Shown: in pieces, positions 973-62,860 of the stretch | Layout of the letters: every line of letters starts with the position of its first letter | Position numbering within the stretch: position 1 is the first letter of the stretch | Assembly: GCA_050084515.1 (NCBI GenBank) | Contig: CM114271.1 | Coordinates: forward strand, 45,632,001-45,696,000 | Direction: 5' to 3' | Origin: Blasia pusilla | Taxonomy: Eukaryota | DNA: 64,000 bases | Notes under the pieces: generated by a model | Told to the model about the DNA's origin: nothing | What the model saw: the letters and a program-made list of their open reading frames with translations, nothing else | Databases searched by the model: none | Translations under genes and position numbers: made by a program

Positions 973-1795
973 CAAGTGTGATTTGCAACCCTCTACTTCC
1001 CAAATCCAGTAACATATTGCAATAGAATTGAATGTGTTACAGAATTGGATCCATTGTGTCAGACAATGTCACCCACCAAATTCATCTTGTCAGTAAAAAT
1101 CTGTCAGGAGTATCTATTTTCCTATTCACTATAAATTAAAAATTCTCATTCTCATTCTCATTCTCAGTCTCCTCCCGTTGGAATCTTCTTGGAATGGATA
1201 ATTATGTTAAGCTCACTTGTGGTAGTCATCTGGCGGCCCTTCCTCAATCAGAAATCATTCGACCCCAAGCTCGTGAGTCTTTCATAGCAAAGTGGATGAA
1301 AATTTTTCATCTGCTCGATTTCTTCTCCAATTGGAACCATCTTTGTATCCAAAGATATTAGGTGGACGATACGGAAGACATAATAGGTGAGACGGTCCAG
1401 CCAAAGTGACCTCGCATCGTAAAGTATGGAATCTCCTACCTCTAGCAAATGGTCAATACAGAGTTTACGGCCTGCCCCTGAATTCGTCTGTTTCCCAAGT
1501 AGACGGTCTAGAATTTCCTAGTGCTCCGAGCTCTATGTTTGCAACTCCAAGCTCTGCAGATCCGGCTTCCACTCCAACTTTGCACGCTCGTAACAATGTT
1601 GTTCTTCCTGAAGAGATTCCGGATGTTATCAACCTCAGTGGATCCGCTCGGACACCAATTGGGCCCTCTGTCGCCTACTGTTCCTCTTGCGAGTATTAGG
1701 CAATAGTTTGCTTTGCCTCTCGGCCTTGAAAATGTTCAAGCACATTCTTGTCGATTTAGCCGCCGCCCACGTACGATGGTAATTGCATTTTTGAG

Positions 1796-4700: not shown

Positions 4701-5160
4701 TATTCAACCCAAGATTGATGTCAACATGTACCCAGAGAAGGTGGATGATCTCAATCCATTATTTCTGTTTGAGTCTAGAAATGGGGTGAAGAGAAACAAT
4801 ATGTGCTGGCCAACGGTGGAGAGAGCAAAGCGAATTGCATCAGCTCGGGAGGCAAAATTGGAGATCATCGCCACGAAAGATGTCTTGAGTGGCAATGGAA
4901 TAGGAAGGATGTATTGGGTCAGGAACAACACTGTAAATTCAAGTGTCACAGGGGTGTATGTGGTGCACATCTGTTGCTTTCCCACATGTTCATGTGATGA
5001 CTTTGTCCAAAGAGAGACAAGTGGCAAAAGGTATTTCCCTTGTAAGCACATATACTATGTGTTGCTGGTAGTTTTAAGAGAGTCGGAGGTAGGAGTAGGA
5101 ATCCACCATCCAATTCTGTCCCTCAAAGAAGTTCAAAGTATTGTAAACAAACCACTTTGA
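1796..5160 (+). pseudogene. MULE-like transposase with N-terminal GCM/WRKY-like Zn domain and C-terminal SWIM finger; stops, frameshifts and one intron
   Basis: CLGALEC..C...CPHC...C...HVGSHTHP (GCM-like). SFDICY, FMADNA and TSGAES give a candidate D-D-E; SDAFHW sits at the CxxH position; PTCSCDDF..PCKHIYYVL is a SWIM finger. TAG at 2921-2923, frameshift near 3092, GTGAGT donor at 3210. Confidence 0.75.
3320..3601. repeat. Second array of the CAACCCG(T/A)CGG palindromic motif inside the transposase intron
   Basis: caacccgacggaaaccgacgggttg (3354-3378), caacccgtcgggacccgacggg, taacccgtcgggttcggacgggttg and others; duplicated agagtcgttcatgggatgcctcgg. Confidence 0.9.
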
Positions 5161-5559
5161 GGATGCAAAATGAGGTTTTAGATTGTACTTTTATTTTTTT
5201 CTCAACCTTCACTTTGAGCTTGAACTCTATTCATCCCGGGGCAAATGACAGATTTTTTCCAGACCTTGGATGGAAAAAGTGATTGGTTCCACACTTATGA
5301 TTCCACTGATTTTTCAGTTTTCTAAATTTTGAGCAATTTGCAACTCGTCGGACTCAGAGGGGTTGCCAAAATATGGAAGAGGAAAAAAAAACAGTGGGAC
5401 TGCTTAATATATGAACAAAAAAGTGCAACAAAATTCAAACAAAAATTTTCCTCTCTTCAACCCAACGGAAACTCTCTTCAAAAAAAAGTATTTATTTCGG
5501 TTGAAGGTAGTTTCCTCTCTCCTCTCTCCTCTCTTCCTCTCTTCCTCTCCTCTTACCAC

Positions 5560-5750
5560 ACCTCAGAGAGAGTGCATACCATGGAGAGCATGGTGTGAGA
5601 CCTTGTTGTTGTGATGGAGAGATTTGATCGATTTATTGGAGATATTTTGGTACTTCTCGTCTCGTTGTGTGAATTCCATGAGTAAACATGGGATTGTGTA
5701 TGTTTGATGATAGGGATGTATGTTGTGTAGCGATGTTTATGCGCACGACA
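5560..5750 (+). mobile_element. 3' fragment of an LTR of the family at 42472-43117
   Basis: attggagatattttggtacttc...gcgcacgaCA is the reverse complement of 42472-42599. Confidence 0.8.
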
Positions 5751-29000: not shown

Positions 29001-29711
29001 ATAAGGAAAAAGGCGGTATGAAATCTACATCACCTACAATGAAAGAAAGTATGCACCATACATAACAACTACAACTTATGATTCCTTAATTTTTACTTGT
29101 GTTTAACATCCATGTACATGAAAAAGATTCTTCATTCCAATCTTAGGAGTGTTGTAGTTTTTTTTTTGTAAAGCTCTTGCACATGAACTTTCACCTCATT
29201 AGTGGATCTTAGCTTTAACTTTGGGTTATTTGCAACTAGTTCTAATGAGATCTTCAAAATGTCATTTTTCTTGGTAATCTAGAGAAACAAGTGTACCCTT
29301 ATCCCTTTGGATAATGGTATTGAGAAGTTGTAACAATAAAAGAGGTTGTTTCGACAGGTGGGAGATGGTCTACGGGGAAATTCTATCCAAGAGATAGTCG
29401 ATCCTATGTTAACTACAAATTACAATTTAGACTCTGCTTGGAGACTTGTAGAGTTAGCGATGGCATGTTTAGAGCCTCATGCAGTGAATAGACCGGATAT
29501 ACAAGAAGTTGTTATTGCATTGAGCGAGGCTTTGGATCTAGAGGAGCATCAACAAGGGATCATAACACCTTCAAATCATTCTCCATCTGACCTTGTTGCT
29601 TCTTCTTTTGACCAATACCAACGAGTTTACCCAGGATCCCGATCTTCTGCTAGGTCCTCCAATGAGAGCTTTCCTACAATGACTTTGAGTACCAATGTTG
29701 CAGCTAGGTAA
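23072..29711 (+). CDS. Malectin-like domain LRR receptor-like Ser/Thr kinase (LRR-I type). Exons: 23072-23156, 23362-23929, 24589-25066, 25501-25633, 25758-25829, 25998-26066, 26227-26298, 26679-26759, 26915-27129, 27386-27630, 27777-27903, 28187-28261, 28466-28655, 28768-28903, 29358-29711. One apparent frameshift near 24692.
   Basis: Signal peptide; GFISIDCG, RYPSDTFDRFW and LNAVE (malectin-like); WSGDPCLP; 69-81 nt LRR exons; TM segment AAIGAVLGLLLLVMILVCVY-RKR; kinase motifs IGKGGYGDVY, VAVK, HRDIKPSNILL, DFG, GSFGYLDPEY and SDIYSFG. All introns are GT-AG. Confidence 0.92.
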
Positions 29712-30659
29712 TATTAGTCGAGTATCCTAGATTGAAAGGATTTAAGATTTGCCTTTTATATTCTTCCTATTTCTCTTACCACATGTGGAAAGAAAAAGAT
29801 GGAAGAAAACTTGGATTGTAAACAGGCCGCATGTGATGTTTCAACATAAAATTAAGTCCTTGTAAATGAGCAAAACCCAGTGTTGTTGTTTTACAATGAT
29901 AAGGACGATTGGTTTTTTAGTTGTGTCATTGTATCCGAGATTGGAAATTGGAAGCCTTATTTTGTAAAGCAAAAAAATTAGTTTTTTGCTGGTAACTAAC
30001 CATATAGAATTGTCCATGTCATTTGGGCTAGGGTAAAGAGATATCTACGATGTTGGATGATTTCACCCGAAAATTTTGTGACACCCAAAGCCTAAAGGAC
30101 TCACGGGCATTGTAATTTGTGCGGGGTTTGCACTAGGCAGCCAAGTAGTGCTTGGCTTTGATTCACTAGAATTCACTCTATAAGAAGTGAAGTTCAAAAA
30201 CCTGCAGATCAAAGAAAAAGGCAAGGACATAACTTCAATATACTATCCCATCTCTCTAAAATCTTACCTTATGGATATTGGACTCTTTTTCATCTTTTCA
30301 TTTTTTGATCTTATTTAGTGATGCATGTCGTGCTTTCATTGGCGGCTTGAAAGGACTCTACACGGACCCCTTTAATCCATACTATGAATTATTGCGGCCA
30401 TATCCACACATGTGTGTTATAGTCACATAATCAGCTTTGGAATAAATGAGATGCTTGTGATAGTTGATTTGAGGTCAAAGTTGGAGTCACGAAGTTGGAA
30501 CTGCGAGCGGAGGTGAACTAAGAGTCGTAAGAAGTTGGAGGTGTGGTCTAAAGGGACGTTGGAGCCGCGGCGACAACGATGCCTGAGATTTTTTACCTGG
30601 TAGAACTGAAATTTTCTTTTTTGGATCACATGGTGTTGTTGGATCTCTTTGATTGCAAC

Positions 30660-32353
30660 GCCTTCAAGCTGAGTCGCAATAAGAGGAGAGGAAGAGAGAA
30701 GAGAGGAAACTACCTTCAACCCAAAGAGATATATTTTTCTAAAGAGAGTTTCTGTTGGGTTGAAGAGAGGAATTTTTTTTTGTGAACATTTTTGCAATTT
30801 TTTTCTCTGTTTAGTCACTCCCATACATTGGTTTTTTCTCTTCCATAGTTTGGCAACCCGTCTAAATCTGACTATTAGCGACTTGCACAAAATAAAAATA
30901 ATTGGAATCACAAATGTGGAACAAATCACTTTTTCCATCCAAGGTCTGAAAAAAAAATCATCATTTTTCCATAGCTGATTAGAGTTCAAGCTCATAGTGA
31001 ACATTTTGGCACTTCAAAGTACAATCTAAGACCTCATTTTGCATCCTCACAGTGGTTTGTTTAGGATACTTCACACTTCTTTGAGGGACAAAATTGGTTG
31101 GTAGATTCCTACTCCTACCTTCGACTCTCCTAAAACTACAAGCAACACATAGTACATGTGCTTACAAGGGAAATACCTTTTCCCACTTGTCTCTCTTTGG
31201 ACAAAGTCATTACAGGAACATGTGGGAAACCAATAGATATGTACCACGTACACCCCTGTCACACTTGAATCAACAATTTTGTTCCTGACCCAATACATCC
31301 TTCCTATTCCAATGCCACTATGAACCTCTTTTGTGGCGATGATTTCCATGTTTGCCTCTTGAGCTGATGCGATTCTCTTTGCTCTCTCCATTGTTCCTCT
31401 ACACATTTTGTTTCTCTTCACCTCATTTCTAGACTCGAACAGAAATAGTGGATTGAGATCATCCACTTTCTACGGGTACATGTTAACATCAATCTTGGGA
31501 AATACGAAGGTCCCTCTAATGCAAACATGCTCTGAAATCCCTCCCTCTACGAGTCTGAAATCGGCACTTGTAAGATTGTCCACTTCATCTTGAATGCAAG
31601 TGGTATCTCCAGCAATGGGCCAAATTTTTGGGGTATTCCCTGCAGCTCCAATGGCAGCCGATTAAGACTTTCAAAAAGCGCATGATTCATTTGGGAAGAA
31701 GAAGTACTTCAATTGATCCTCGATTCTAGTAAAACAATCAAAGGTTTTTAGCCCCCAGAAGCCTGGCAGTGGTTGTCTTGTCCTTGTACAATTCTTATTC
31801 AAGAAAGTGCCATATGCTCTCCTATTGCCATCCGATCCTGCCCTGCAAGTTAGGCCACGTCCAAGGTTTCTTCAAGAAATATGCAATTGCTTGAGGCTGC
31901 AATCAATCTCAACGACCGGAATCCCGTACTTTTGAACTATCCCCGAGATTATATGTTGGGAAGTTCTAGCAATAGAGGGATTTTAAAATAAAACATTCAT
32001 TGATTGTGCAGAAGGTATTTCAACTCGAATTCGGGAGCATTCTGGTGTCTCTGAATACCTGGGCGGGGTAATTTCATCATCCAAATCAATCACCCGATTC
32101 GTTCCTCGATTTTGACGCTTGACTTGCTTGAAATCAATATACTTATAAGGTCTCTAAGAGTCTCGTTCAAACTGCTCTACCATCATCTATATGAGACATC
32201 TTGGAACACGCCCACGAATGTCCCCACCAATGTGGACGTCTTTCTCGAGAGGAGTTATAGCTATGCACCAATTGAAAGCTTCCACATATAATTTCTCATC
32301 CCCACATCTTACAACGGCTCTAACATAGAGCTCCTAAATCAAAGGGCCCTTTT
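30660..32353 (-). mobile_element. MULE-like element copy 2 (3' part including SWIM ORF 31071-31466), inverted relative to copy 1
   Basis: DDLNPLFLFESRN...PTCSCNDF..PCKHMYYVL is nearly colinear with 4615-5160; nucleotide similarity extends over ~3850-5530. Confidence 0.9.
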
Positions 32354-32426: not shown

Positions 32427-33275
<849 letters not shown>

Positions 33276-33872: not shown

Positions 33873-36800
33873 TGAATGTTCTACTTAATATGAAGTTTTT
33901 GTGAAGAAATATCTCCATACAAACTTTGTGTCAAATGCCACACTAAAATCAAGTTGGGGATGCATGAGGAGGCATTGGACAACAGTAATATAACTGGTAC
34001 CATCCCTGACTTGAGCGCTCTCATCAATCTTCAAACAATGTAAGGGAGTGAATTGGATTCCATGCAAGTTATTGTGGGTTTGTGTTGGTTTAGGGTTTAG
34101 GGTTTATCTTTGGAAGTGTCTTTGCACATCCTAAAAGTAGATCATTATTTGTTCGTATAATAGATATGTTTAGATTTTTAACCACTTTTGGCGGATTGAG
34201 ATAACATTGTGTAGGCAATTGCAAAACAACCAATTACAAGGTTTTATTCCGGATTCATTGGCTTTGCTCCCAAATCTCACGTTATTGTACGTAGAACCTT
34301 CTCATTGTATTATCAAAGTTATTGTGCATTTTAGAGCATTTAATTGAAGAAATATTTGGTTTGAATGGCTTATAGTGTGAAAGATTACAAATTGTTAAAA
34401 TTTTGAGATAATCATTGATAGTTAAGTTTTTCTTTGTAAAGTTTCCTTCAATCACAAGAGACAAATTATGATATAGATGATCTATTCAAGAAAAATAGAA
34501 AAGAATTTGGATCATAATTTGAAGTTGTAGTTGTTAAGATCATCTTAAGAATTTTTTTATTATCTAGATTAGAAGATAGGTAGTGTTATGAAAATAAATA
34601 TTGTAAATGATTTGTCTTATCAATATCTACAAAATGTATGAGTAGCAAGTAACTATGGTATTTTGTGCATTTTCTCAAAAAATTTAGACCATAACCTCTT
34701 GGAGGGAGATCTACCACCAGTCTATCGAAGAAAATTGATACGGGCTCATTGACTTTTCATAGGCATTCCTTCCTCTCCTTCTTAGTTCTAAGTTTCAATT
34801 CAATGATATGTGTTATATATAAGCGAGGGGATGATCAAGTTCCAAATGATTGATTGATCAAGAACTTTGTTAATCTATAAAAATAAAACTGCGTATTTTG
34901 GAATTTTTTCAGGGCAACTGATAATCCATATGTATGTTTTGGAGGAAATCCCTGCTTACGACCATCCTCCTCACCAAGATCTCCTTCCAAGGGCTTAAGA
35001 TCCAATATTGGGCCCATAGTGGATGCGGCAATAGGTGGCGTACTTGGGCTATTGCTTCTAGCAATGATTTTAATTTGCGTGTGTAGAAAGAGGAAGAATT
35101 CCAAACTTCCAATTGTGAAGATACATACTCAAACCAATAATGATTGTCTACTTATGTGAATTTTTATAATATGTAATCTAATCTTGAATTTAATGAATAT
35201 CTTTATATTTTCCTTCTTTATCTTATGTTTGTGAGTATTGAATGCCATTGGGTTCTTTTTGTTAGTCTAGGTAAATTAGATGTGAAAGTTGTTGCCAATG
35301 GGGTTTCTTCCTTTTCAAACCAACCTAGAGATCCAAACCAACCTATCTCTTTCACACGAATTGAGATACTTCATGCCACAAACAAATTTTCAAAAAAAAT
35401 TGGTTAAGGTGGCTACGAAGATGTTTACTACGGATAATTGCCTGATGGTCAAGAGGTGGTTGTGAAAGTGAACAAAGGAAATTCACACCAAAGAGAAAAG
35501 GAATTTTTGAACAAGATAAATCACGTCGTCATCAAAAAATTCGTGTGTCAAAGTAGTATCAAGAATCACTAAGATGTTGACTAATTGGAAATAAGTGTAA
35601 ATGAACATACAAACTTATGATCTACAAGAAATCAATAGCATGAGTATGGTTGGCATTCAAAGTCTTTCTAGGCTTAATTATTAATACTTTCAATCATTTA
35701 GCTTTGAATCTCATTCAACATTTGGTGGTGGATGTGGCTAGGTAATGCTCCTATCAAGATTATACCACAAAATTTTTTATTTTTTATAGATTATTGCAAG
35801 GAAGAAAATGAGCGAGTTTTAATATTTGCATTCATGTCTCAAGGGACTTTGCAAGAGCATCTCTATGGTAAGCATTCCCTTCTTCTCATTCTAATAACCC
35901 CTTCATCCCATCCAGATTATGTCATACCCAAAATCATCCCACGACTCATGAAAAGATATAGACTTTTTCCTTCGACCAATGGTTCAAAGGTTCTATTCTT
36001 TTCTTACTTGAAAGGAAATTTTTTGCCTGAGGGAGAAAGAAATAAAACTCTTGGAATAGTGAGAAAAAACGTGAGTGTGTTAATAAGATCCCCCAATTTC
36101 CACTAACTTGTTCTTGGCTTTGAAATAGGTGAAGGAGGAACTCATGTACCACAACCACTAGATTGGCAAACAATACTAGATATTGTCCTCAACGCTACGC
36201 GAGGTGATGATGATACTTGGATTTAGCGTGCATCTAAATTCATGCATATGCATTGTAGTATAAGGAAGATGTGTGCATTTAGAGCACTTATCCCTTTCAA
36301 ATGAAGGATACATGATTCTATTTACTCAAGAACAGTCCTTCATGCGATCGATTTGTTGTTCTACTCTAACTACTACAAGTTTTTCTTGTTTGTGGCTTCT
36401 ATACTTTCCAAGAATGGAATACTGCATCATTCTTGCTCTCCTCTCTTATCCTCGAGACATAAAACCAAGAAATATTTTATTGACCGACAAGCTCATGGCC
36501 AAAATATCAGATTTTGGTATTTCAAATTTTGGAATCATTTGAGTGGCAACTACCACTCAAATGATTCCTTATTATTTACTTGTGTGGTAACATCCATGTG
36601 CATGTAAGAGTTCTTAATTCCAATATTAGGAATGTAGAAGTTTTTTTTGGGCGAAGCTCTTGCGTATGAACTTTCACCTCATTAGTGGGTTTTAGCCTTA
36701 ACTTTGCAATGGTTATTTGCAAGTAGTTCTAATGAGATCTTCAAATTTTCATTTTTCTTGGTTATGTAGAGAAATAAGTGCACCCTCATCCCTTTAGATC

Positions 36801-37195
36801 TTGTTATTAAGAAATTCTAATAATGAAAGAGTTTATTTCAAAAGGTGGGAGATTGTCAACAAAAAAATTCTATCCAAGATGTAGTCGATACTACGCTAGC
36901 CACAAATTATAATTTACACTCTCCATGAAGAGTTGTTGAGATAGCAATGGCATGTTTGGAGCCTTCTGCAATAAATAGACCGGATATACAAGTTGTTATT
37001 GCATTGAGTGAGGCTTTGGATATAGAGGAGCATCAACAAGGGATAATAACATCTTCAAATCATTCTCCATATGACCTTATTGCTTCTACTTTTGACCAAT
37101 ACCAACGTGTTCATCCAGGCTCTTGATCTTCTGCTAAGTCCTCCAACGAGAGCTTTCCTACAATGACTTGGAGTTCCAATGTTACAGCTAGGTAA
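33873..37195 (+). pseudogene. Partial tandem duplicate of the LRR-RLK (intron 5 to stop), pseudogenised
   Basis: Exons 6-15 and introns align with 25890-29711. TAA in the Gly-rich loop (35405-35407), damaged splice sites, and deletion of the exon 13 end plus exon 14. Confidence 0.92.
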
Positions 37196-37805
37196 TACTA
37201 GTAAAGTATCATAGATTGCAAGGATTTACGCTTTTCCTGTCATCTTCTTTATATTTTATCCGTGTTCATAACTCTTAACACAAACTAATTGGATTCAAAT
37301 GGAGAAAATATCTAAGCATTGAACTATAGCGTTCTTGGACTGGATTAAGAGTAGTAGACTATTACTCACATTCCAAAATTTCCAAGATGCCCTATCCTAG
37401 GGGAAAAAATTGTGACTATAGTTGAATTGGTTCAACACATAAAGTAGCTCTACCATATTTTAGGAATTATTACTCTTTAAGCCCAATAGATCAATATCTT
37501 ACGGATGTCATCTTGAATCTCCATGGCATACTTAGTTTTCACCATGAGGAAATTGATGTATCTAATCATTGACCTGCTAGTTTTAATGACCATATCTTTT
37601 AGTTGTGCACCATTATTTTTTCTTTGCTCTATGATTTATCCAAGTTTTTTAAGAGCATCGAAGCAAGAGTATTAAGACACCTTAATAATGAAAAATTAGA
37701 GAAAATTAATAGGGGAAGTGGTGATGGGATTCTAGATTTATAGTGCAAAGTTTATCCTTAGAAAGATGTCATGATTTTAAGTTGGTGCATTACCATATAA
37801 AGAAA

Positions 37806-42471: not shown

Positions 42472-43117
42472 TGTCGTGCGCATACACATCGTTACACAAC
42501 ATACATCGCTATCATCGAGCACACACACAAACACGCACAATCCCATACTAACTCATGGCATCCAAACAACGAGACAAGAAGTACCAAAATATCTCCAATT
42601 AAAGTAAGATCCAATCTCTCTCTACACAATCTCACACCATAGCTCTCAAAGGTGTGCACTCTCTCTCATGTCAAACCAAACCTACTCTCCTAATGAGAGG
42701 CTTGGATAACACTCACAAGGCAAGGGACCATAGCTCCGTGGCCTCATGCCAAGAGGTTCAACAAAGAGAGAATGAGCTCTCAAGCTCTCTCTCCTTGGGA
42801 TATATAACCCCCTCCCCTTTCCCAAGCTCTCTCCATGGTAACCTATTCTCCCAAGTCACCTCCTTGGCTCTTGACCTGATGTAGGAGGTCAAGGGCCACA
42901 TACCAAAAATAGAAAGTTGATCATATACTCCAAATGGTACTTACCTAAAATAGTAAGTTCCTCAATATGGCTCCAAATGAGCCAAAACGAAGGGGAAACC
43001 TGCTCTCTCAGGTTTCCCACGGCCTCAGCATGTCATCATCAACCTGCTAGGCCTGTCCTCCACTACTCTTGAAGACGCTTTACTAGATCTTACCGATCTA
43101 TCCTAAAGGACGTGACA
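42472..43117 (-). mobile_element. 3' LTR (Y+x, 646 bp) of the PHD-integrase Ty3/gypsy element
   Basis: TG...CA termini (tgtcgtg / cgtgaca); TATA-like motif at ~42801; related segments at 5560, 32427, 59233 and 59984. Confidence 0.85.
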
Positions 43118-43434
43118 GCTGTCGTGCACATACACATCGCTACACAACATACATCGTTGTCACCGAACACACACACAAATACGCACGATCCCATGCTAAC
43201 TCATGGCATCCAAAACAACGAGACAAGAAGTACCAAAATATCTCCAATCGCCCCCTTAGCTGGTGGTTAGGTCCCTCTAACTCCAGATAGCCATCTATCC
43301 CTACCTACCATGACGTACATCTCTCGGACGCTAAGAGCAAGAAAGTCCGGTGCTCATGTGGCCCCATTGTTAGTTGCCTTCCTGTCATCCATGTCAGAGA
43401 AAAAGTCGGGATCGAAACCTACCTAATATCTCCT

Positions 43435-46400
43435 CTATGTACATCTTGGACACATCCATTGTCCCCGAGGAACCCTAGTGAGAGGTGGCGTTAGACATGC
43501 CATATGCCAACCTCTCGAATAACCATCACAGACTAGCATCGTGGTCGCACCACGGGCAGAACCACACAACATACAACGCAAGCCTAAGCTCGGATCCACT
43601 GTACCATCAATGTTAGGAAGGTGACATGGTGCACAATTATGCACATGGTCCTTCCATACCATACCATCGCGTTCCTCCAGCAAGAGAACACCAGATGGCA
43701 AAACGTAACACACTCTCAAGATAGTGCGCCCTACAGTCACATCCAACGTCGTCGGTGCCGTCTGCTGCAAGTAGACATAATCTCCTTGATAAAACCTCCG
43801 GATAGTTGGTCGATAACCACCACCCCAAATAGTTGCATACCTCAACGTATCTCGATGCTGCGCAATCGCCAAGTTCTCAAACGCCATGGGCATCACTCTT
43901 TGAAACAACTCAGCCCTCTGAGAACATGCTCGCATCCATACATTTGAGCACTTGCATTTTTGTCCCATTGTCATCCACCACCCTCAAGGGCATTCCATCT
44001 CTCCTCTTTGGCCTTTCCCAAAGATATTTATCTTGTAGTAGATAGCCATACGTCTTATGTCGAATCTCCTTGAAGAACTTATCTGTCCATCCACCTTCTC
44101 TCTGCAGAGTGCTTAAATAGCGCCTAATTTCTTTCAACTTGCCCTCATACAAATTCTCTTTGAAGGCTAGAGCATTCTTTATGCCACCCTGTTCTTGCGA
44201 TGACACTTGCCATACATATGCATCATCCTCATCTATCTCAACTGCCTCCATATTTTCTTCTTGACTAAATCTAGCTCTAGGCAACATGTCAGCTAATGAG
44301 TTCTCTTTTCCAGCTATATGCCTCAATTGTGGATTTAAGGACCTAATGTAGGCTATCCAACGTAACATGGCTATATCTGGAGTTGCACAATTTGCAATCA
44401 TTCCTAACAGAGGTAGACAATCAACTTCATGCAACATATAGGCTCCCATAAGATACTCCTTCTCAACTTTCATCGCAGTCACAACTTCCCAAAGCTCCCT
44501 CTTTACCTGAGGGTACCTCCTTTTTTGTTCCGTGAGTGTACGAACTCCAAACCTTGTCGCAAATCTTCTTCCTTCTACATTATCGTGCCCAACTGCCCAC
44601 CCGATAGCAATGGGGCTAGTGTCTACTGTGATGATAATAGGTCTTCCACATTCGTAGCTCATTTGTCATAGAACCGGTGGCAACTTCAATGCCTCCTTTG
44701 ACTACATCATTGCTGCTCTTTGCCTCTTCTCCCAAGTGAACTTCTTCTTCTTTCTCAACAACTCATACAAAGGATCAGATATGTGGCCAAAATGAGGAAT
44801 CAACACCTGATAAAATACATAAGCTCCTAAAAACCTTCTCACTTCGGTGACATTTTTGTATCCTCGTATCCTCCCAATGACATCAACTTTTGCTCGATTT
44901 GGTTTTCGGCCAAACTCTCCACAAAGATGACCCACTACCACAACTCGAGGAATCCCAAAGCTACACTTTTCTCTAAAAAGAGTAAGATTGACCTCTTCTA
45001 GTCTTGTTAGGATCATATCCACATCACAAATATGATCAGACACAAACTTTCTACATCCATCTTTCACAACCCTCTCAATCCTATCTTCTATTGCACATCC
45101 CTTTATAAGAATATCATCTACAAAAGGAATAGTTTTCTCAGGAATGAACTCTCTCAAGATCTTATTCATTGCACCCTTCATGTGAGCGATAGAATTTGTT
45201 GCTCCTTGAGATAATGTGCACATTCTTACAAGCCCAAGTGGATTACGCATACTCAACTATGTGCAATTGTGAAATTTACCATCGCTGCCACCACACTTGT
45301 GTCTACACAACCAATTTCTTGTGTAGTAAAAGAGAAGGCCTTACCATATCTCCTTAACATCTCCAAAAAGCTTTTTCTTTCAATTTATGTGAGAAACTCA
45401 CCCCTCCAATTTCGTGCAGACAATCTAGCATACATCCCACTAATGAACTCTTCATCTAATAGAACACCCTCATATTTTAACAAACCTTTCTTCTTTTTTT
45501 CTTCATAAAACGTCTTTTCTTTTCATTCATTTCTTTCATCATTTGGAATCTACTAGACCACAAAGGAAAACATTGAGAAAACCCACACCTAAACATGTAT
45601 GATTCTTCCCCCTCTGCTAGCGGAATGCTCTTTCTTTTCTCTGCACCCCCATATTCCCGCTCTACAAGAGTACTAACTAAAAATCCGAAAACTTTTTCTC
45701 TACCTTCATAGGACCATCTCTCAACTTCTCTCTATTCCTTTCATAACCTACTTGTACAGTAAGGAATTGAACTGAACTCATTCCATCCTGACTTCTGATA
45801 CGAATATAATGAGACCCATCATCCATGACTTTGGTCTCCATTCTAGATGCTGTGATATAAGGTTGCCCAAGAATCATAGGATAAGCAGCTCCATTCTGAA
45901 CAAAATAATTTTGCTCAATCAACACATCTCCCATACGAGTTTTGACAGTTGGACAAACACCGTAGAGTTCACTTTTTGGGTTGTTAGCTGCATGTAGTAC
46001 CCATCCATGCCTTGTATCAATTGGCCACATCCCTTTGTCGTATACACTTTGTGACATAATGTTGATCTCCGAACCATGATCAACGAGAGCCAAAACTGAC
46101 TCTTGGAGAGAGCCAAGTCGAGTTGTAGCCTTCGTCGTTGCACACGCCCAATATGACCGAGAATAGTGTCCACCATTGTGCCTTTCTTCACCTTGTTCTG
46201 TCAAGGCTTCTCCTACTCTTGCCTCTTCTCCTTGTAAGTCAAGCTTTTGTCCAAAAACTTGGCAAAGCTCTTCATCTTCTTCTTCTGTAATGTCAGTATC
46301 CAATGCCCTCACCATCACCATATCTACAATCATCTACCTTTTCCTTTTGATCACATTTATGATCAACTCATGAAAGTCACGTTTGGCTATGCCCAAGACT

Positions 46401-51308: not shown

Positions 51309-54130
51309 TCATCTACAATATGGATGTTGCCTTCCCATCTTTCTACCCTCATCAATGGTACATAATGACTCACTGACAACTGTGACCGGTTGAATCGTTC
51401 TATTGGGAGCTTCAAAAGCCCTATGTCCATCTAAACTGAACTCCAAAGTATTACATGATACCCTATGATTCTCGCCTACTTGTAGCACACTACTCGCCAT
51501 TCGGGGCGATTCTTCCATGTCTAGGAAGAAAGCTTGTTCAACCCGACTAGGGAATACAAAAGGTTCGAGACCATTGGTTGCATTTGCGAAGTTTGCTAGT
51601 AAGAATCCATCACTATCACGCTTCATTGTAGCCCTAGCCCCACGCCAATCTGGTCGCACCTAAGTCCCTTTCATGAGAATGATAGGATTGGATGTGTTCC
51701 CGTAGTCCAATTTCCAAAGGTCAGTTAGCTCTCCTATGTATCCCATTTGCATCCATCCTCTATCTTGGTGATTGCTCATTTGCTCGAATAAAAATATCAA
51801 CCTTGAATCATATGTGACAAAATGATCATCACTTTGATCTACCATACGGAAGTGGTTTCCATAGGCTTGCATTCTCTTGTAAGCTAAGACGGCCATTCGA
51901 GGTGGAGCAGACAGAAGGTAGACATCCCACTCCATATTTGGGTGTAGTGCTGAATGCTCTTGGATTGCCAATCGAATCCATTCTGTGAATGGTGGTAAGC
52001 CCCCCGCACCACCCCCAATATGTGCATTTTTCTCCATATTATATTTCATGTAGAGGTCATGCCATTATTAGTCGACTGGTATCTGGTGAGCTACGACATA
52101 AAAAAAATAAGGAAGCCAAATAAATGCAACAACACGTAGGCTTGAGTCATTCAACCCCTTACTTACCTCACCATGGTTGCATTACTCTAGTGTTTTGCAA
52201 CACATATTCATGAGCCATCTACCAAATATTTTTCGGCAATTACAATGGGGAACCTCTGCCTTGAAGAACTTCACCTAACGTTCCCTCATCTTCCTCCGCT
52301 TGCCATATCCTGGCCTTCACATGTTCAAACCCCGCTATATACTCTATCAAATATCCCAAGGTCTCGTGCGAAATGTAACCCATTGCCATGCTGGCCTCAG
52401 GCCTTTATCTTGTCAAGACGTGGTCTTTCAAGACTTTCATAAAATGCTCCAGTGGGAACATCCACCTCGTATAAATAGGCCCGTACTATCCAAGCTCTTC
52501 CACAACATGGATAACGAGATGACTCATGACATCAAAGAAGGCGGGAGGAAAATGGATCTCCAAATCGCAAAACAATTCTGCCACATCATCTTTGAGCTTG
52601 AGAAAGCTTGCTGGATCAAAGACCTTCACACATATATGACCAAACACCTTGCACAATTGCATGATTGCATTGTGAATAAAGCCGTGATCAATCCCCTTAA
52701 GCATACAGCGAATCTATTGCATAAGCACATGATAATCGTGTGTCTTCATACTACCGAGTTTCTTGTTTTTTACATGCTTTTTAAAGGCAACTGCATAGCC
52801 GGTCGGAGCTCTCTAAGATTGAAGCCTCGAAAGAATTTTTTCCCACTCTATGTTTGTGCAAACATAAGGTGCCTGGTATTTCAATACCACATTGGGTATG
52901 GTCTCATCATCCTTCAACCACAACCGAGAACGTATTCTCTCTCTTGGAGATCCAATCGCACTTGTTGTTGTGTCCTTCTCCCGAAAAGGAACCTCAATAG
53001 GCTCTCGCATACATTTTCTCAATATGCATTACGTCTAGATTGTGTTTGCTAGGGTCAACCTGTTAAACCACATATGACAACCATGAGTACAATCGATGAT
53101 AAACGAGCCTCAATTCTTGAAAGCATCTAGTGTGGCAAATAATAAACGTTGTAAGAGCGGATGGGTGACATAGATTACCCTCCAGTAGTCCAACTCCACA
53201 TCAAGTATGCTCTTCCGTTTCACACCATATCTCTGCCTCGGATCCCGTTGAGCATTTGGAGCTTCGTATCTTGGCATTCTAGTCCCCCTCTAAACCCCCA
53301 CTGTGCCTCTTTCCATGTCGTACATGGTCTTTGGTGTCCCAATCGAGAATCTGCTCTTTAGTGACTCGTGGAGGTGGACCACTTAAGCTCTCGGGCATTG
53401 TTGAATTGAACTATCTATGATGTCCTATATCTGTAAGGATGATCTAATGGGAGGAAACGTCGATGTCGAGTGTATTTCATGCTCCTCAAAGGTTTGGAAT
53501 GCTCACGAGTGAAATTGGGGCCACATGCAGTACAAGCCAAATACCCCTTTGTTGCTTGACTAGAAATCATGCCGTGGGCTGGATAATCTCCCAAAGTCAA
53601 TACCAATTGGGCTTGTAGCCTAAATGGGTTTGGTCTCCCAATCTGTTGCACCACATCATGGATCCAAATGCCTTTGTACCACAAGCGCTTCAACTCATCC
53701 ACAAGAGGAGCTATCCAAACGTCTGTATTCCTAGAAAGAGCAGATTGTGGGCCCGGGATTAGCAAAACCAATAAGACAAAAACTTTAGTATTCAACCACG
53801 GAGGGAGGTTGTAATTTAGCATGGTTACAAGCCAGCAAGAATATACATTGTTCTTGTCTCCGAATGGATTGACTCCATCGGTCGAGAGGCCAAGTCTCAC
53901 GTTCCTTGTCTCTCTTGCAAACTCTGGCCATCTCCGGTTGATGAATCTCAATGTTCTGAATCTCCGATGTGCGCCGCAGCCATCGATACTTTATTCTCGG
54001 ATGTCCAAGTCATCAACTTTGAAATTTTTGGGCTCCTGTACATCCATTTCAATCTAGGAATGATTTCAAAATGTCGAAGTACCTTGGTAGGCTGCATGGA
54101 TACGGATCCCTAGACACTTCATTGTACCCA
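51309..54130 (-). pseudogene. CACTA TnpD-like transposase (Transposase_21 / DUF4218 / DUF4216-like regions)
   Basis: RNVRLGLSTDGVNPF, YNLPPW, GDYPA, HRRFLPLDHPYR; CDLEIHFPPAFFDVMSHLVIH; GYIGELTDLWKLDY; EPFVFPSRVEQAFF. Confidence 0.9.
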
Positions 54131-55299
54131 AATCTTGCATGCTAAATGCAAAACAACTCCTTTAACTCCCAAGGAACTGGTGTATCTGGCGTCGCTCTCC
54201 TCCTGTCAACTTAGGGCCCATATCTGGCTCCCAAGTTTCCATCGTGACTACGGTAGGACTCTCATGCGTGCGTGTTGGTTGTTGCTATGGTGCAACCCAT
54301 CTCGCATAAATGTAACTCTCAACCCACGTGCAATTCCTCGCAACCACGCCGATCTTCGTGACTACCATCTCTGGCGACTTGCAAAACATCCCAAGAAGTC
54401 CGAGGTGTCTCTCCTGATCATCCCTAGTGTGTCAATCTCCTTGAATCTCGCCCTTGATCCACCGACTCAACCGTCTTGGTAGGCATTGGACTCACCAACG
54501 AATAATAGCTATGATCCGTCGCATCCTCAAACGATGCTACTCACCTCGCCTAAGCTAAAAATCCAGGTCAAGAGTTCATGTCCATTGCGTGACCCAAGAC
54601 ATGACGTCGCAATGCCTCACGATAGTGATGGTACTACCGTCACTCTTATGGGACTACCTCGTCAACACTCGATTGGCCGACACACGGCCAACCAACAATG
54701 ACCAAATCTATGGCCCTCCCCTGCTCCAAGTCCTACGCTCCCAACAATGAAATATCCCTTGGTAGGAACTATATTATCCTCGACAAGGGATGCAGACAAC
54801 AAGTAAGGAAAACGGAGACGTAACTATGCCAAATGGTGAAGTGAAGCACGATTGCAACATCATCAATCTCCATGTATATATCTTGATGCACGCGCACTCC
54901 TACCTACAAAACAACAAACTAAACGAGTGCCGATCCCTCCAAAGAGATCCAACACCCGAATATCCTCCTTTGGAATGCGCCACACAATGGGTGTGGTATC
55001 CAAGCGTCATCATAGCACTCGGTTATCTCGGTTTTTTCTGACCCATTACGCTTTGGTGCAAACATCTCGCTCCACGCTGTGCACATGCTCATGGCTAAGC
55101 ATCAAAGCTCCTTCTGCCGAGCCCCAAAGCGGCACCTCTCCTCCACGGATCGACCATCGCACCCCTCTCTCCATAACAATGTCAAGAATGAGAGTATCTG
55201 TGCATGGACATGTCCTCAATCAAATCACTAGGCCAAATGATGGTTTGCTAAATCTTGTTGAGGTTGCCATCTCTTATGGTTGGCGCTTCATCACTGCAC

Positions 55300-57455
55300 T
55301 TGTGAATTGAACGGGTAATGAGATAAGGCGCCCATCACCTGACTGCCATCTTGGTTTGTAGGATGCTGAATCCTCCTAGTAATCTAGGGGAAACCCCATC
55401 GGGTACAACACTGCTCCACCAACCAAGACGTCGTAGGATTCTAGATCGGTCACTACCGCCTTGGCTCACACCATGGACTCATCTATAGGGTGTCCGGGGA
55501 GAATCCTCACCACGACCTCACGTCGGGTGATATACTGTGTGGTACTCGCTATAACCAAGGATGTTGGTATCTGAAATGGACAACACTCCACATCGACCCT
55601 CATGAGGCCAAAACCTCTGAATGCCGCTTTCCCCAACATTAGGGGTTGCGCTCTTGAATCCAACAAGAAGCGTTGCAGACCAAAAGCTCTATCTCGTGGA
55701 CTCACGAACTAGAAGACCTCTCCCCAACTTTACAGCAAAAAAAAACCAAGAGAAGCCATGGCACTCTCTATCATGGGTCTAGCGGGCATCTCTGCCATCC
55801 TTGCAGCCGCAGCCTACCATGAATCTGACATGGATGGCCCAAGCATCAGCTCCAAGGGCAGGTCCAAGACCTCCTCTATAATCACCTCTAAACGTGATGC
55901 AGAACTCCAACTCCATGCTCACATCGCGTAGGCAAACAGCCGGAAAACCTTGACAGGCATACCTCCCAACGTCTTTACACTGGAAGCAAAAAGCAAAGGA
56001 GCGCGGTCCACAATACTGGCCACTCCTAACAACATGCTCGACACATGCTCCTCCTGAGCATCACCAATAGGAGTCGTTGCACTCCCTTCTCCCATTGCCC
56101 TACATGCCTGCACACCAACAACATCACCAACTCTCCGAGAACTCTGATCAGGACCCATCGATGGGGTCCTCATCGCCTCGGACAACGTGAAGGACTGAGG
56201 AAGCCTCGTCTATTTCCTGGCTTCCCTTCGCTATGGTCCAACTCTGCGCTGCTCCACAAGTAATAATTGCATCGGCCTCCATGTGGGCAACCTCGCACAT
56301 CCAACCAGGATCCTCCATATCTCTCGCGGCTCCACAAGACGTCGATGCCATAGATTTGGCATCGGGTAACCTCAATGCCATAGCATCAATATGCTGCTGT
56401 AGCTGTTTTATCTGAGCAACCATCCCAGCCACATGCCTGGAATCCCTCGACGCATCTAGGTGGTTGGACTCTACCTCCTCCATGGGCAACTCCACCATCC
56501 CCTTGGATGAATCCAACACCTCGTCCCCCAATGGGACCACCTAGTGCACGACCTCTGGGCCCACCCTGACCGGGAACTCACTATGGTGCCCTTTCAGGCC
56601 CTCGATCTAGACGTAACTCAAGGTGCAAGCTGAAACACCTAGAGCATGTGTGATCGTACCTCTGATAATAGTCACATTGATAACCTTATTATGCAGCACC
56701 ATCTCCTCCTCTATGCTGAGGCACGCAACCATGACCCTCACGAGTGCACTCATGATGATGATGGGCTCCACCACATGACCAACAAATAATTGTAAGCGGC
56801 TGCTGTTAAGCCGCATATGAAGGTGCAGGTCTCTGTGGCATGGCCTCCCGATATCCTCCCCGATCTCCCTCGCACACGTGTCCACAGGGTTTGGTCCAAC
56901 TTTGCGTACCATGACTGGATAGCTTGAGCCTCTATCACCCCTTAGTGAAGTTAATCAACCAATGCAAGTGGGTGTAGGCCTCACGCAAACTCTCAGCCGG
57001 GCGCCTCTAGAAGTTGTGAATGCTCCACAACTTCTTCGTCCGTACCCCGTGGTAGCTCGCCCTCAACTCAACGAAGAACTCAACCACGAGGTTGAACCAG
57101 GGACGAACTCGACCAGACGATGCAAGTGCTCTAGTGCTAGTCAACCATTGTACAACATCATTGGTGGAGGAACTCTCTCCTGACTCCTGCTCCTCACCTC
57201 GAAATGGCTCAATCCATGACACATAGTGTGGATCATAGTAGAGTCTCCATGCCTCAAGCTCATGGGCATATCTCTGCGAGAGCTTATGGTAGTCGTCCAT
57301 GGGTGCCCCCTCTAAATGTTGGAACATTCGGTTCCATGCTGTAAATGGGTTGAACTCTCAGGAGTTCCTGGCCCATTGTGAGTCACACCAACTTCTAAAC
57401 TCCTCAATGAAGTCGTGTAACTCTATAGTGCCTATAGCATCCAAAAATCCACGCG
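55300..57455 (-). pseudogene. Retroelement gag-protease fragment nested in the CACTA element
   Basis: FLLDSRAQPLMLG...YDVLVG (retropepsin-like, D-S-G read as D-S-R); gag-like ORF at 57007-57327. Confidence 0.6.
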
Positions 57456-57895
57456 GTCCTCTACCCCTCACTCAAGGAGTTATCCAAGAAAATTGGAAAT
57501 TTCACTCACACCTTGGAATGGTGGCTATGGCAGCCCAACAAAAATGATCATAACTCCATGCTTCAATCTCCAAATCATGTATTTCTTCCATAACGTACAC
57601 CACTTCTTGATCTACAACCTTATCAAATTGGTTCCACCATTTGATTTTCCACAAAAATTGTCAAAAATTATCGTAGCCCAAACGTCTCTTCTCCTACACA
57701 AAATTGGTAGCGATTCCACCTGATTTCTTCCAACAAAATGTAAAACCTATGAAACTACAAATCAACAAGCTACATAGTGCTCTTGAGAGCATCGACATGG
57801 GAAAAACTTTGCCCCATATTCAATCTTTATTAAAAATTGGGCAATATTTGTCAGATAGTACAATGAGCGATTTTGTAAGCCTGTTCCTCATTAAG

Positions 57896-59232: not shown

Positions 59233-59923
59233 ACGCTTCCGCGTGCCACTCTTCCACACGAAAAATCGGCAAAGGAAACATCAAAAGTAAGCAGCTCTTG
59301 CTTTGGTGAGCTCTTTCATGAACCGCTGAATAGGGAATAAAATCCCTAACCTGCAAATCAAAACCAGCGAGCTTCCCCATGAAGCTCTCTCACTCATTAA
59401 TTTCTCTTTTTGTAAATCAAGTAATTAAATCCAATCTCTCTCACCACCATAGCTCTCAAATGTGTGCACTTTCTCTCAATGTCAAACCAAGTCCACTCTC
59501 CTAATGAGAGGCTTTGGTTGCACTCACAAGGCAAGGGACCAAAGGTCCGCCGCCTCATGCCAAGAGGTTCAACAAAAAGAGAATAAGCTCTTAAGCTCTC
59601 TCTCCTTGAGGTATACTACCTTCCCTCTCCCAAACTCTCTCTTCGATAACTATGCTCGTAGGTCACCTGCTTTGCTCTTAACCTGTTGTAGCGGGTCAGG
59701 GCCACTTCCCAAAGTAGAAAGTAAACTCTACCAAACATTGAAACTTACCCAAAATAGTAAATTTCTCTATATGGCTCCAAATGAGTCGAAAGCGAAGGAG
59801 AAACCTACTCTCTCAAGTTTCCTACGACCTTAGCACGTCATCCTCGACCACCTAAGTCTGGCCTCTTCTACTACATAAGCCGCTCTCACGAGATCTCTCG
59901 ACCTATCCTAAAAAGTTGTGACA
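59233..59923 (-). mobile_element. LTR (Y-type family)
   Basis: Aligns with 32427-33275 but lacks the long AG run; ends aaagttgtgaCA. Confidence 0.75.
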
Positions 59924-59983: not shown

Positions 59984-61217
59984 TCGATCTATCCTAACAA
60001 ACGTGACAATTTTCGTGCGCATACACATTGCTATACAACATACATCATTGTCACCAAACATACACACAAACATACATGATCTCATGCTAACTCATAGAAT
60101 TCACACAACAAAATGAGAAGTACCAAAATATCTCCAATCGCCCCCTTAGCTAGTGGTTAGATCCCTCTAACTCGAGATAGCCACCTATCCCTACCTACCA
60201 TGATATACATCTCTCGGACGCTAAGAGCAAAAGATCGGATGCTCATGTGGCCCCATCATTAGTTGCCTTCATGTCATCCATGTCACAAACACAAGTTGGA
60301 ATCTAGAACTACCTACTTTATGTACATCTCAGGCACATCCATCATTCCCTAAGAATCTTAGTGAGAGGTGACGTCAAACATGCCATATGTCATCTTGTTG
60401 AACATCCATCATACACTAGCATAGTGGCTGCACTACAGGCGGAACCACACAACATATATGGCAAGCATGCAAGAACTACTGCTAAGCTTGGATCAACTTT
60501 ACCATCAATGTTAGGAAGGTGACATGGCGCACAATTACACACATGATCCTTCCAAACCATACCATCACATCCCTCCAATAAGAGAACACTAGATGGAAAA
60601 ATCTCACGCACTCTCAAGATGGATGTAAGTGCGCCTAAACTTACATCCAATGTCATGGATACTGGAAATCTGCAAGTAGACATAGTCCTGATGAAACCTC
60701 CGGATAGTTGGTCGATAATCAACTCCCGAATAGTCACATACCTCAACGTATCCCCATGTTACGTAATCGCCACGTTCTCAAACGCCATGGGCATCACTCT
60801 CCAAAATAACTAAGCCCCCTGAGAACATGCTCACATCCATATATCAGGGTCATCAAGATTCAACACCTCACCAACATCTCGACAAATGGCTATAGGTAAA
60901 TCCAACTCTCGGCCGTAAAGGAGCAAATACGATGAGAAAGACACTAAGGATGCTTGCTTGTTGAATTTGTATCTAATCGCCAACCACGGCAACTAGAGGT
61001 CCCAATCTCTTAGGTGATCTGCTTGCAAGCCATACTTGCGTAATCCTCTCTTCACCGTTTGCACAATCCTCTCCGGTAGTCCATATGCCTTAGGATGATC
61101 TCGAAAAGTGATGCAATGTTCGATCATCACTTGATCACACAAGGCCTGAAACTCCTCGCAAAACTCTGTACCTTTATCTGTCAAGACCTCCGCTGATGCG
61201 CTGTAATGATTTAGCAT
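59984..61217 (-). mobile_element. Second copy of the PHD-integrase Ty3/gypsy 3' end (integrase core, PHD, PPT, x segment, LTR stub)
   Basis: [10 protein letters not shown]...GLPERIVQTVK (rve); degenerate PHD at 60318-60460; 60011-60843 aligns with 43120-43944. Confidence 0.88.
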
Positions 61218-62860
61218 TCAATCTAGGAAGGCATACTTGCCACCAATACTGTATTTGGAGCAAGTTGTATGACCACTTTGAATACTTAGTCATGCCATTT
61301 GATCTTACTAATGCACCTGCAATCTTTATGGGCCTAATGAATGATATCTTTCGTCCATATTTAGACAAATTAATAACATATCTAAAGTGGACATTCACTC
61401 TAGTTGGTGGAAAAAGTTATCCAAAGCCACAAATGAGGATGAAGAAATTGCAGTTGCTATTCATGCCAACAAAGTATACAAGGCTCAAGGATTGGTTTTC
61501 CATAAAGATAAAGTATGGATCCCACAAGATTCACAATTACGCATTGAAGTATTTTCTGAAGCTTATGACACAGTCATTGCAGATTAGATGGGAGCTGAAA
61601 AAGCCTTAGAGGGATTACAACGGGCATACTATTGGCCCAAAATGAGAAAAGATGTTGACGTATATGTAAGGAGTTATAGGATTTGTTAACAAATCAAGGC
61701 TAGAAACACAGAATCCGTTAGATTGTTGTAGCCCATCCCAATACCTCAAAAACATTGGGAACAAATCACTATTGATCTTGTTTGTGAGCTACCATGCGAT
61801 CACGGGATATGACTCTATTGTGGTCTTTGTGGATAGACTAAGCAAGATGATACACCTTCGTCCGACCAAGAAGACTGTGATTGCACCAGAGTTGGCTAGG
61901 ATCTACATCGAGACAGTCTTTGTCCATCATGGTCTTCCTAAAGTGCTTATCACTAATAGGGGAACCCATTTCACGAGTTTATTTTGGAAAGCTTTATTTG
62001 GATTGCTCCAAACTAAACTAGCCATGTGTCTGACTTATCACCCTCAAAGTGATGGACAAGTGAAAAGGGCCAACTGTACCATTGAGGATATGCTACGCGC
62101 CTTAACATTGGAGGATCAACAAGGATGGGACTCATTTTTACCCTTAGTAGAGTTCTCATACAATATCTCCATGAACTCTTCTACTAAGGCCACACCGTTC
62201 TTTTAAATGCATGGCAAGTATTCCTCAATTCCTTCTAGTCTCACTTGAATAGGGAGAAGTCTGAGGGAACCTACAAAAGTAGCTGCAATTAATGAGTTTG
62301 TGGACCAAATTCTTAAAAGGGGTTCAACTTGCTAAGAGAGAGGTTGGCTATTTCCCAAAATTCACAAAACAAACATGCAGATGCTTATCGTAGAGATGTT
62401 GAGTTTTTGAAGGGACAAGGTTTGTTAGCAACAACCAATTTATCATTAGTAGGAGTTAGTAAAAGCTTAATCCTCGCTATATTGGGCCTTTCACTATCCT
62501 ACAAAAGTAGGGGCGCCATGGCGTATAAGCTAGACCTACCGATGTATATGAAAATCCATCATGTGTTTCATGTCTCTCTCTTCTTTGACCGTTTATTCCA
62601 CGCCCTAGAGATTTAAGGATAATATTGTCACTCCACCACTATCTCAAATAGTTGGAGATCATGAAGAATTTGAAGTGGAACGTATCTTGGAAACGCACTC
62701 GAGAAGCTCATCACCTGTGAGTTGAATATTTGGTCCAATGGAAAGGATATCCACTATTTGAGGCCACATGGGAACCCTCACCAACTTGGCCAACGCACCA
62801 TTAATAGTACAACAATTTGAAAGTTCTCACAACAAGGACATTGTGTCTTAAATGGGGAGG
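61218..62860 (+). pseudogene. Chromovirus (Ty3/gypsy) fragment: RT piece, integrase, GPY/F motif, chromodomain, PPT
   Basis: [50 protein letters not shown]...YLVQWKGY..EATWEP; PPT aaatggggagg at ~62850-62860. Confidence 0.9.

Follow-up and report, generated by a model that had tools for sequence, protein, structure and literature searches.

A PHD-finger-bearing Ty3/gypsy family with split repeats and a DNMT3-like methyltransferase, found as decayed copies in a stretch of the Blasia pusilla genome

The 64,000-nucleotide stretch of Blasia pusilla DNA analysed here (contig CM114271.1, positions 45,632,001 to 45,696,000; referred to as the window, whose coordinates are used throughout, with features on the minus strand unless a plus strand is given) contains two integrase ends that carry a PHD finger, a 5' half-element at 59923-54090, and stray terminal repeats designated A and B. 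All of these pieces are very probably the decayed remains of insertions by a single high-copy Ty3/gypsy family, one of the KnitGypsy-Dnmt3 type. The explanation that we consider the best overall, covering the anatomy of such a family together with the steps proposed below, is a likely one; it envisages the layout A, gag, protease, DNMT3-like methyltransferase, a leaky stop, reverse transcriptase (RT), RNase H (RH), integrase (IN), PHD, purine tract, B, 2 bp, A, B.

The original prediction held that an integrase frame in the window ends in a PHD finger, and this was borne out. The frame at 43435-43983 closes on a C4HC3-type finger (...CMLCGSARGATTMLVCDGYSRGWHMAC...WMCPRCT*, stop at 43435) that scored 37.9 bits against Pfam PHD (cut-off, 24; E, 1.9e-9). 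Of the integrase claimed for this copy (copy 1), the C-terminal tail is present at 43435..43944, consisting of the end of the core helices and an SH3-like beta domain followed by the PHD, but the catalytic core is missing and the RT-RH upstream comes from another gypsy. The tail was 74 to 80% identical to relatives P0001, P0002, and P0005, and the nearest named relatives were liverworts (80% and 78%). The finger itself (43441..43575) has Tyr at Cys4, and seven codons have been deleted directly before Cys1. A structure model of the region was of moderate quality (pLDDT, 68; pTM, 0.36). A Cys-His motif just ahead of the PHD linker (43627-43605) was invariant across 26 aligned proteins and is possibly an extra zinc site.

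Copy 1 combines sequence from two families. The breakpoint between the PHD-family tail and an unrelated gypsy (43943..43944) is marked by the end of similarity to both relatives and copy 2 at 43944, by loose reads, and by a step in depth. In four runs, reads from 43943 took one of two paths, into the core that copy 2 retains or into the continuation of the other element, and DNA contig depth at this position went from ~1e4 to 1-4e2 in runs X2 and X3, where summed depth does not equal copy number. The protease-like, RT, and RNase H remnants at 43945..46333 belong to a different gypsy family rather than to the PHD element, and their RT was very divergent, forming a long branch outside the PHD-family clade in RT trees. 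The shared strand and the expected order would suit a single natural element in which the RT-RH (44189-45214) runs into the PHD-bearing integrase. However, this RT-RH has ~25% identity to that of the PHD family and a different frame from the tail, no integrase core is present, and reads pass into two families where the depth steps, so that a single element is very hard to credit.

In RNA run X21, which bears the same species label and of which 6 in 100 was used, first mates over the PHD bins numbered 143 to 215 on the plus strand versus 10 to 33 on the minus strand; under the usual stranded protocol, this bias means sense RNA. The unrelated gypsy upstream had the same strand bias. Since 2172 of the 2520 reads were less than 95% alike to the window, their source was copies other than copy 1. 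Among the runs listed as holders in a run search, none was recorded as RNA.

The second copy that had been predicted also exists. Copy 2 (60318..61256) comprises integrase core, tail, and PHD with many stops and has 80% DNA identity to copy 1 across 874 bp. The claim that it keeps the rve core was only partly upheld: the region aligns with the integrase core of relatives at 58 to 59% identity, but copy 2 on its own had no rve match in Pfam, and its PHD alone scored 23.8 bits, just below the cut-off of 24. Repeat B1, a junction (AT), and the first 24 bp of A2 follow at 59985..60138, where the copy is truncated.

The two fingers had been described as carrying complementary lesions that leave an intact C4HC3 consensus. 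Tyr was indeed found at Cys4 in copy 1 and at Cys3 in copy 2, but in copy 2 Cys1, too, is replaced by Tyr, and two stop codons interrupt the finger. Although every zinc ligand survives in one copy or the other, the lesions are ordinary independent decay: among 73 complete PHDs of the family in databases, 7 are likewise missing a ligand (the eight ligands are all kept in 66).

A search for longer relatives returned 86 proteins, many of which have RT, RH, H2C2, rve, and PHD in a single chain. In such intact relatives the PHD is in frame with the integrase, as had been anticipated, and the Pfam chromodomain PF00385 was found in 0 of the 86. The named relatives were from Calypogeia, Marchantia, Sphagnum, Tetrabaena, Haematococcus, and Chlamydomonas eustigma, along with one Coleochaete transcript; most matches were unnamed, and no seed-plant or fern names occurred among the relatives found. 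P0203, a family member labelled as uncultured cyanobacterium, probably comes from a misassigned contig. Of the 15 listed members of the Marchantia P0108 cluster, 4 map to the V chromosome, where they carry hypothetical-gene annotations. Linker and finger are alike from chlorophytes to liverworts, and the integrase residues D, D-X34-E were found in 8 of 8 proteins checked. The relatives have the Ty3/gypsy order PR-RT-RH-IN with an HHCC and DDE integrase, of which the window holds pieces only, and their full order is Gag-PR-DNMT3-like-RT-RH-IN-PHD. Among 50 pattern matches in viral contigs there were 0 relatives.

The association with a methyltransferase was counted in the best 80 of 536 metagenome loci, with duplicates retained. 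Of the 34 loci with enough upstream DNA, 30 had a same-strand C5-methyltransferase match there, and a PHD match was present downstream in 70 of 80, most of the misses being loci that end early. The best solved relatives of the domain were DNMT3A/B/C (E, 5e-8). Motifs I, IV, VI, and VIII were all present in 31 of 45 matches, and motif IV was present in 43 of 45. The pN/pS ratios of DNMT pairs ranged from 0.29 to 1.03.

In locus L015, a Gag-PR-DNMT frame of 1369 aa is followed by TAG and then, in the same frame, by RT-RH-IN-PHD of 1047 aa. Across 21 rows, the stop between DNMT and RT was TAG-CAR in 12, TAA-CAA in 3, absent in 2, and an edge or frame artefact in 4. The two stop-less rows belong to another subfamily, and the window itself has TAG-CAA. 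DNMT and RT-RH share a frame throughout; one subfamily, as well as P0141 and P0230, has this frame open, and the stop is conserved in the window's subfamily. TAG-CAR is a context for stop read-through. In the window's subfamily, Gag-PR-DNMT would be the abundant product and RT-IN-PHD would be made by read-through of TAG-CAR.

The ends of the family are split repeats instead of paired LTRs. Downstream of the PHD, in copy 1 and in relatives, come a G-run, B (CACGACA), two bases, A (starting with TGTCA), and B. In copy 1 these are a G-rich polypurine-tract-like run directly 5' of repeat B (43249..43260; a G-run also precedes B in relatives); B1, which ends in CACGACA and is 92% alike to B2 (43120..43248); the palindromic internal junction B-GC-A, GACA-GC-TGTC (43110..43126); A2, which starts with TGTCAC (42600..43117); and B2, whose CACGACA forms the element end and abuts a copia element on the other strand (42472..42599). 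The junction motif occurred in 26 of 61 loci versus 6 of 3050 shuffles. Sequence ahead of repeat B had no Rfam match of weight, and a hairpin considered there was no better than shuffles (z, +0.89 and -0.94).

The 5' end of complete relatives is repeat A alone, and a TGG primer site after the 5' A was absent in 11 of 11 relatives. Two forms were found, A-coding-B-A-B (for example, L018, L042, L048, L051, and L070) and A-coding-B. Of the 59 loci with a B match, 27 continue into A, 28 into unrelated DNA, and 4 are incomplete; 19 of the B-then-A loci and 26 of the B-end loci were distinct by flank, and 7 loci of other subfamilies were unmatched by the probes. Target duplications of 4 bp, scored on 11 relatives (5 long and 6 short) as the window copies are not scorable, were exact in 8, had one mismatch in 2, and were lacking in 1. 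The TG...CA ends and short target duplication of the relatives are as in Ty3/gypsy, and by all appearances a DDE integrase inserts this element with split repeats. The internal B-xx-A junction would be the template that supplies or bridges the TG/CA ends, as in split-repeat elements of the DIRS type, before insertion by the DDE integrase, and the A-coding-B form would arise from B-B recombination or use of the internal end. A symmetric two-repeat circle, which would also yield A-B-xx-A-coding-B, was considered and set aside; none of the listed 5' ends has that arrangement. In the five long-form examples above, the A pair was usually more diverged (84 to 91%) than the B pair (88 to 94%), and the A2-B2 join was variable in some copies (L054/L059 and L070).

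A third piece of the family in the window begins with a 5' repeat A that is followed by a leader instead of B (59430..59923). Gag and protease remnants (55289..57462) match Marchantia Mp4g09160, one of 18 proteins within 90%, at 44% and 35% (E, 3e-38 and 4e-46). A C5 cytosine methyltransferase remnant (54540..55003) retains motif I and the catalytic PC motif but is frameshifted, with an internal deletion of ~540 bp; it is followed by an in-frame TAG-CAA stop and the start of an RT-side frame, which is then cut (54090..54287). The gag and DNMT remnants had no Pfam match in six single-frame reads and were identified via relatives; window positions 57462-54090 are colinear with the 5' halves of relatives' loci (gag, protease, and methyltransferase). 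The DNMT remnant and the PHD copies are separate insertions in the window, linked only via relatives. Joining the 5' half at 59923 and the 3' end of copy 1 into one element was rejected: the flanks differ (AATG versus GCCT), and the A repeats are 80% alike versus 92% for B1/B2.

A further 5' repeat A with leader lies at 32600..33275, and the end of a repeat A plus a repeat B ending in CACGACA lies at 5565..5750 on the plus strand. A transposase-like gene with a SWIM-like zinc motif, recognized by eye, is present twice, at 1760-5536 on the plus strand and at 30683-32352; each copy has PHD-family A or B repeats beside it. Related stretches at 23331-29772 and 33873-37256 on the plus strand (78 to 84%) resemble, by eye, an LRR receptor-kinase-like gene with a malectin-like start.

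The RT-RH tree was built from 44 of 81 rows, with 37 left out, including the window's unrelated RT; the window holds no RT of the PHD family, and the clade placement is that of the relatives. Land-plant-type, Coleochaete, and chlorophyte elements formed one clade with Klebsormidium nitens KFL_009030040 (UFBoot, 100; short branch). Haematococcus chromodomain elements, used as stand-ins for REXdb chromovirus references, fell in a separate clade (90), and deeper nodes were weak (39 to 69). The DNMT is located after RH in chlorophyte members and before RT in streptophyte-type members. KFL_009030040 (DNMT-RT-RH-IN) was equated with the published KnitGypsy-Dnmt3 element from its domains. Judged from sequence, the lineage is of the KnitGypsy-Dnmt3 type and is also present in Marchantia, Calypogeia, and Sphagnum. 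KFL_009030040, the only K. nitens protein found, ends ahead of the PHD position.

KnitGypsy-Dnmt3 is described, in the sections available of PMC5890265, as a gypsy Pol with a DNMT3-related domain and DIRS-like repeats, and those sections and supplements contain neither the word PHD nor land-plant members. The family studied here resembles it in the DNMT3-related domain, the A-coding-B-A-B repeats, and an RT clade with DNMT before RT; the methyltransferase and the non-LTR ends, which link the family to that element, were absent from the original prediction. Unlike that element as described there, it has a PHD at the integrase end, liverwort and Sphagnum members, one subfamily in which a stop separates DNMT from RT, and two forms of insertion with 4-bp duplications. 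The phrase 'streptophytes (Gypsy-DNMT3)' occurs once in the accessible portion of 10.64898/2026.05.21.726589. Like chromoviruses, including algal Chlamyvir (PMC6317226, in part), the family is Ty3/gypsy with a chromatin reader at the integrase C-terminus; unlike them, it lacks a chromodomain and paired LTRs, and its RT stands apart from the Haematococcus stand-ins. REXdb relied on LTR-FINDER with two LTRs at 95%, and the text seen of it includes no PHD or methyltransferase (PMC6317226); the two-LTR criterion would miss the split-repeat ends of the PHD family.

PHD-bearing retrotransposons are known (excerpts of PMC6673714 and 10.1101/2022.06.16.496473), and the earlier statement that such elements are reported in green algae is correct, Chlamydomonas REM1 and Gypsy-7a_cRei being on record in those excerpts. 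Compared by their partial descriptions, both are gypsies whose PHD has been proposed to influence where they insert, as here. They differ in that the REM1 integrase is described as truncated, reversed, and chromodomain bearing (PMC2774666, in part), and Gypsy-7a_cRei has near-ordinary LTRs and a legend that lists PHD before INT. Split-direct-repeat elements of the DIRS type (SymbioDIRS-Dnmt3, as partly described) share the A-coding-B-A-B layout and a DNMT3 domain, but they have a tyrosine recombinase, whereas the PHD family has a DDE integrase, TG...CA ends, and a 4-bp duplication. According to excerpts of 10.1101/2021.11.30.470311, its supplement lists PHD-transposon fusions, which may include this family; the available parts of 10.1101/363937 and PMC7466625 held nothing relevant. 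The open-access literature, with subscription papers and Repbase outside its scope, had no description of a land-plant gypsy with PHD and DNMT. The kind is known from one alga, and its details and presence in land plants appear to be little described.

The residue two before the His, a Gly in both window copies as originally noted, was G in 70, A in 6, L in 2, and W in 1 of 79 fingers, the W protein being truncated. The cage Trp of H3K4me3 readers was therefore absent in 78 of 79, which agrees with the prediction and differs from ING/BPTF-type cage PHDs, where that Trp is present. The nearest solved fingers were KDM5 PHD1, CHD4, DPF, BHC80, ATXR5, BAZ2, and UHRF1. Likeness to cage-less PHDs (KDM5A/B PHD1, CHD4 PHD2, BHC80, BAZ2A/B, UHRF1, and ATXR5) had E values of 1e-13 to 1e-8, and the model superposed on them at ~1 to 1.4 A over 46 to 57 residues, with the R2 and A1 pocket residues kept. 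Foldseek top matches to PHF1 and UHRF1 Tudor-PHD (TM, ~0.2; rmsd, 12 to 18 A) were discarded as reflecting domain order only. An Asp follows Cys3 in 77 of 79 fingers, and a P-x-G-x-W-like loop is present in 64 of 73. In KDM5A and UHRF1, the equivalent Asp binds H3R2 and the Trp late in the finger frames H3A1. The cage-less finger of UHRF1 nevertheless tolerates K4me3 with only a 3-fold loss (from portions of PMC3214078).

In contrast to the cage-less PHDs, the K4-pocket acids and the second R2 Asp are mostly absent in the family: D at Cys4+1 was found in 5 of 79 fingers, and a KDM5A E305/D306-like acid was found in 1 of 23. BHC80/AIRE-type readers of unmethylated K4 have an acid before Cys1; an acid within 4 residues before Cys1 was found in 4 of the 21 closest relatives versus 41 of 51 more distant ones. 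The predicted binding to unmethylated H3K4 is consequently left with mixed evidence, favoured by the missing cage Trp and by nearest fingers that read unmodified H3, but not by the K4-pocket acids. As these acids are absent in the window's subfamily, it cannot be concluded that the finger strictly prefers unmethylated K4, and a strict reader is somewhat doubtful.

These comparisons nevertheless suggest that the PHD probably serves as an H3-tail tether of the integrase. It has been suggested instead that a strict reader of unmethylated H3K4 steers insertion to silent chromatin, as a stand-in for the chromodomain, whose position in chromoviruses the PHD occupies. The absent cage Trp, the nearest solved fingers, and the V-chromosome members of the Marchantia cluster would agree with this, but few close relatives have the acid before Cys1 and fingers of the UHRF1 type tolerate K4me3 (PMC3214078, in part). 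Sex chromosomes and TE nests, moreover, accumulate insertions because these are not purged there. The unmethylated state of K4 extends over most of a genome, beyond its silent parts, which also weighs against such steering. The window copies sit among LRR-kinase-like genes and TEs alike, and because most of the window is TE, the argument from TE nests has no control. Real steering into silent chromatin is accordingly tentative at best.

The PHD might alternatively serve the methyltransferase, keeping particle proteins on K4-unmethylated chromatin, where the new copy would be methylated after insertion. The ADD finger of animal DNMT3A is a model for such holding on K4-unmethylated chromatin. 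That the DNMT is DNMT3-like, and that PHD and DNMT co-occur across chlorophytes and streptophytes despite the change in DNMT position, would be expected if so. However, the two domains are in opposite parts of the polyprotein, with a stop between them in the window's subfamily and presumably proteolysis, and near the clade there are PHD gypsies without a DNMT match (P0277 and P0300); this role is unlikely.

A structural or protein-binding appendage, or a recently picked-up host PHD, with no chromatin reading, would account for the loss of K4-pocket acids in the window's subfamily. It seems improbable, given that linker and finger are the same from chlorophytes to liverworts, that H3R2 and H3A1 pocket residues are kept in most members, and that the least decayed pair, L015/L038, shows purifying selection on the PHD (pN/pS, 0.11). 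The ratio was 0.23 to 0.70 in most other pairs, up to 0.70 between subfamilies, and 1.65 to 1.71 in two close decayed pairs.

In the preferred explanation, that of the H3-tail tether, the PHD would hold the integration complex on nucleosomes via the free H3 N-terminus (A1 and R2), any bias away from H3K4me3 promoters being moderate at most, and the methyltransferase would methylate new cDNA or the fresh insertion. Against it stand the lack of both K4-linked acids in the window's subfamily, the subfamily without a stop before RT, the K. nitens protein that ends ahead of the PHD position, the KnitGypsy DNMT result in yeast, the high pN/pS ratios of some PHD and DNMT pairs, the short branch and weak deeper nodes of the RT-RH tree, the moderate model quality, and the separate insertion of the window's DNMT and PHD pieces. 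We consider evenly balanced the broader proposal of an old gypsy clade of chlorophytes, charophytes, and bryophyte-grade plants, missed by LTR-based classification, that would combine a working DNMT3-like writer with a working H3 reader on the integrase, split-repeat replication without paired LTRs or tRNA primer, insertion by a DDE integrase, and recent multiplication in Marchantia.

Were both domains functional, a single land-plant retrotransposon would be at once a reader of histone H3 and a writer of DNA methylation, with implications for how transposons select sites and how they evade or exploit silencing. The KnitGypsy DNMT gave no methylation in yeast, a result its authors call inconclusive, and the inactivity of this Klebsormidium enzyme in yeast is one reason why the function of transposon-borne DNMT3 was not settled in 2018 (PMC5890265, in part). 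Marchantia, with many near-intact copies annotated as hypothetical genes, offers a genetic model. In genome annotation, LTR finders overlook elements that lack paired LTRs, and the methyltransferase frames of such elements can be mistaken for host DNMT3 genes.

Four chlorophyte-type members (P0040, P0046, P0077, and P0188) have a tail of ~300 aa after the PHD with weak leads to adenine-methyltransferase-like proteins (Atlas, 0.84; Pfam D12 E, 0.03), the Atlas look-up of this long tail giving only leads under 0.9. If the match is true, these members would carry two methyltransferases and a PHD. C5-methyltransferase matches also occur together with a copia-type pre-integrase domain in P0130 and in a gypsy outside the clade in P0341, and these are possibly further methyltransferase captures.
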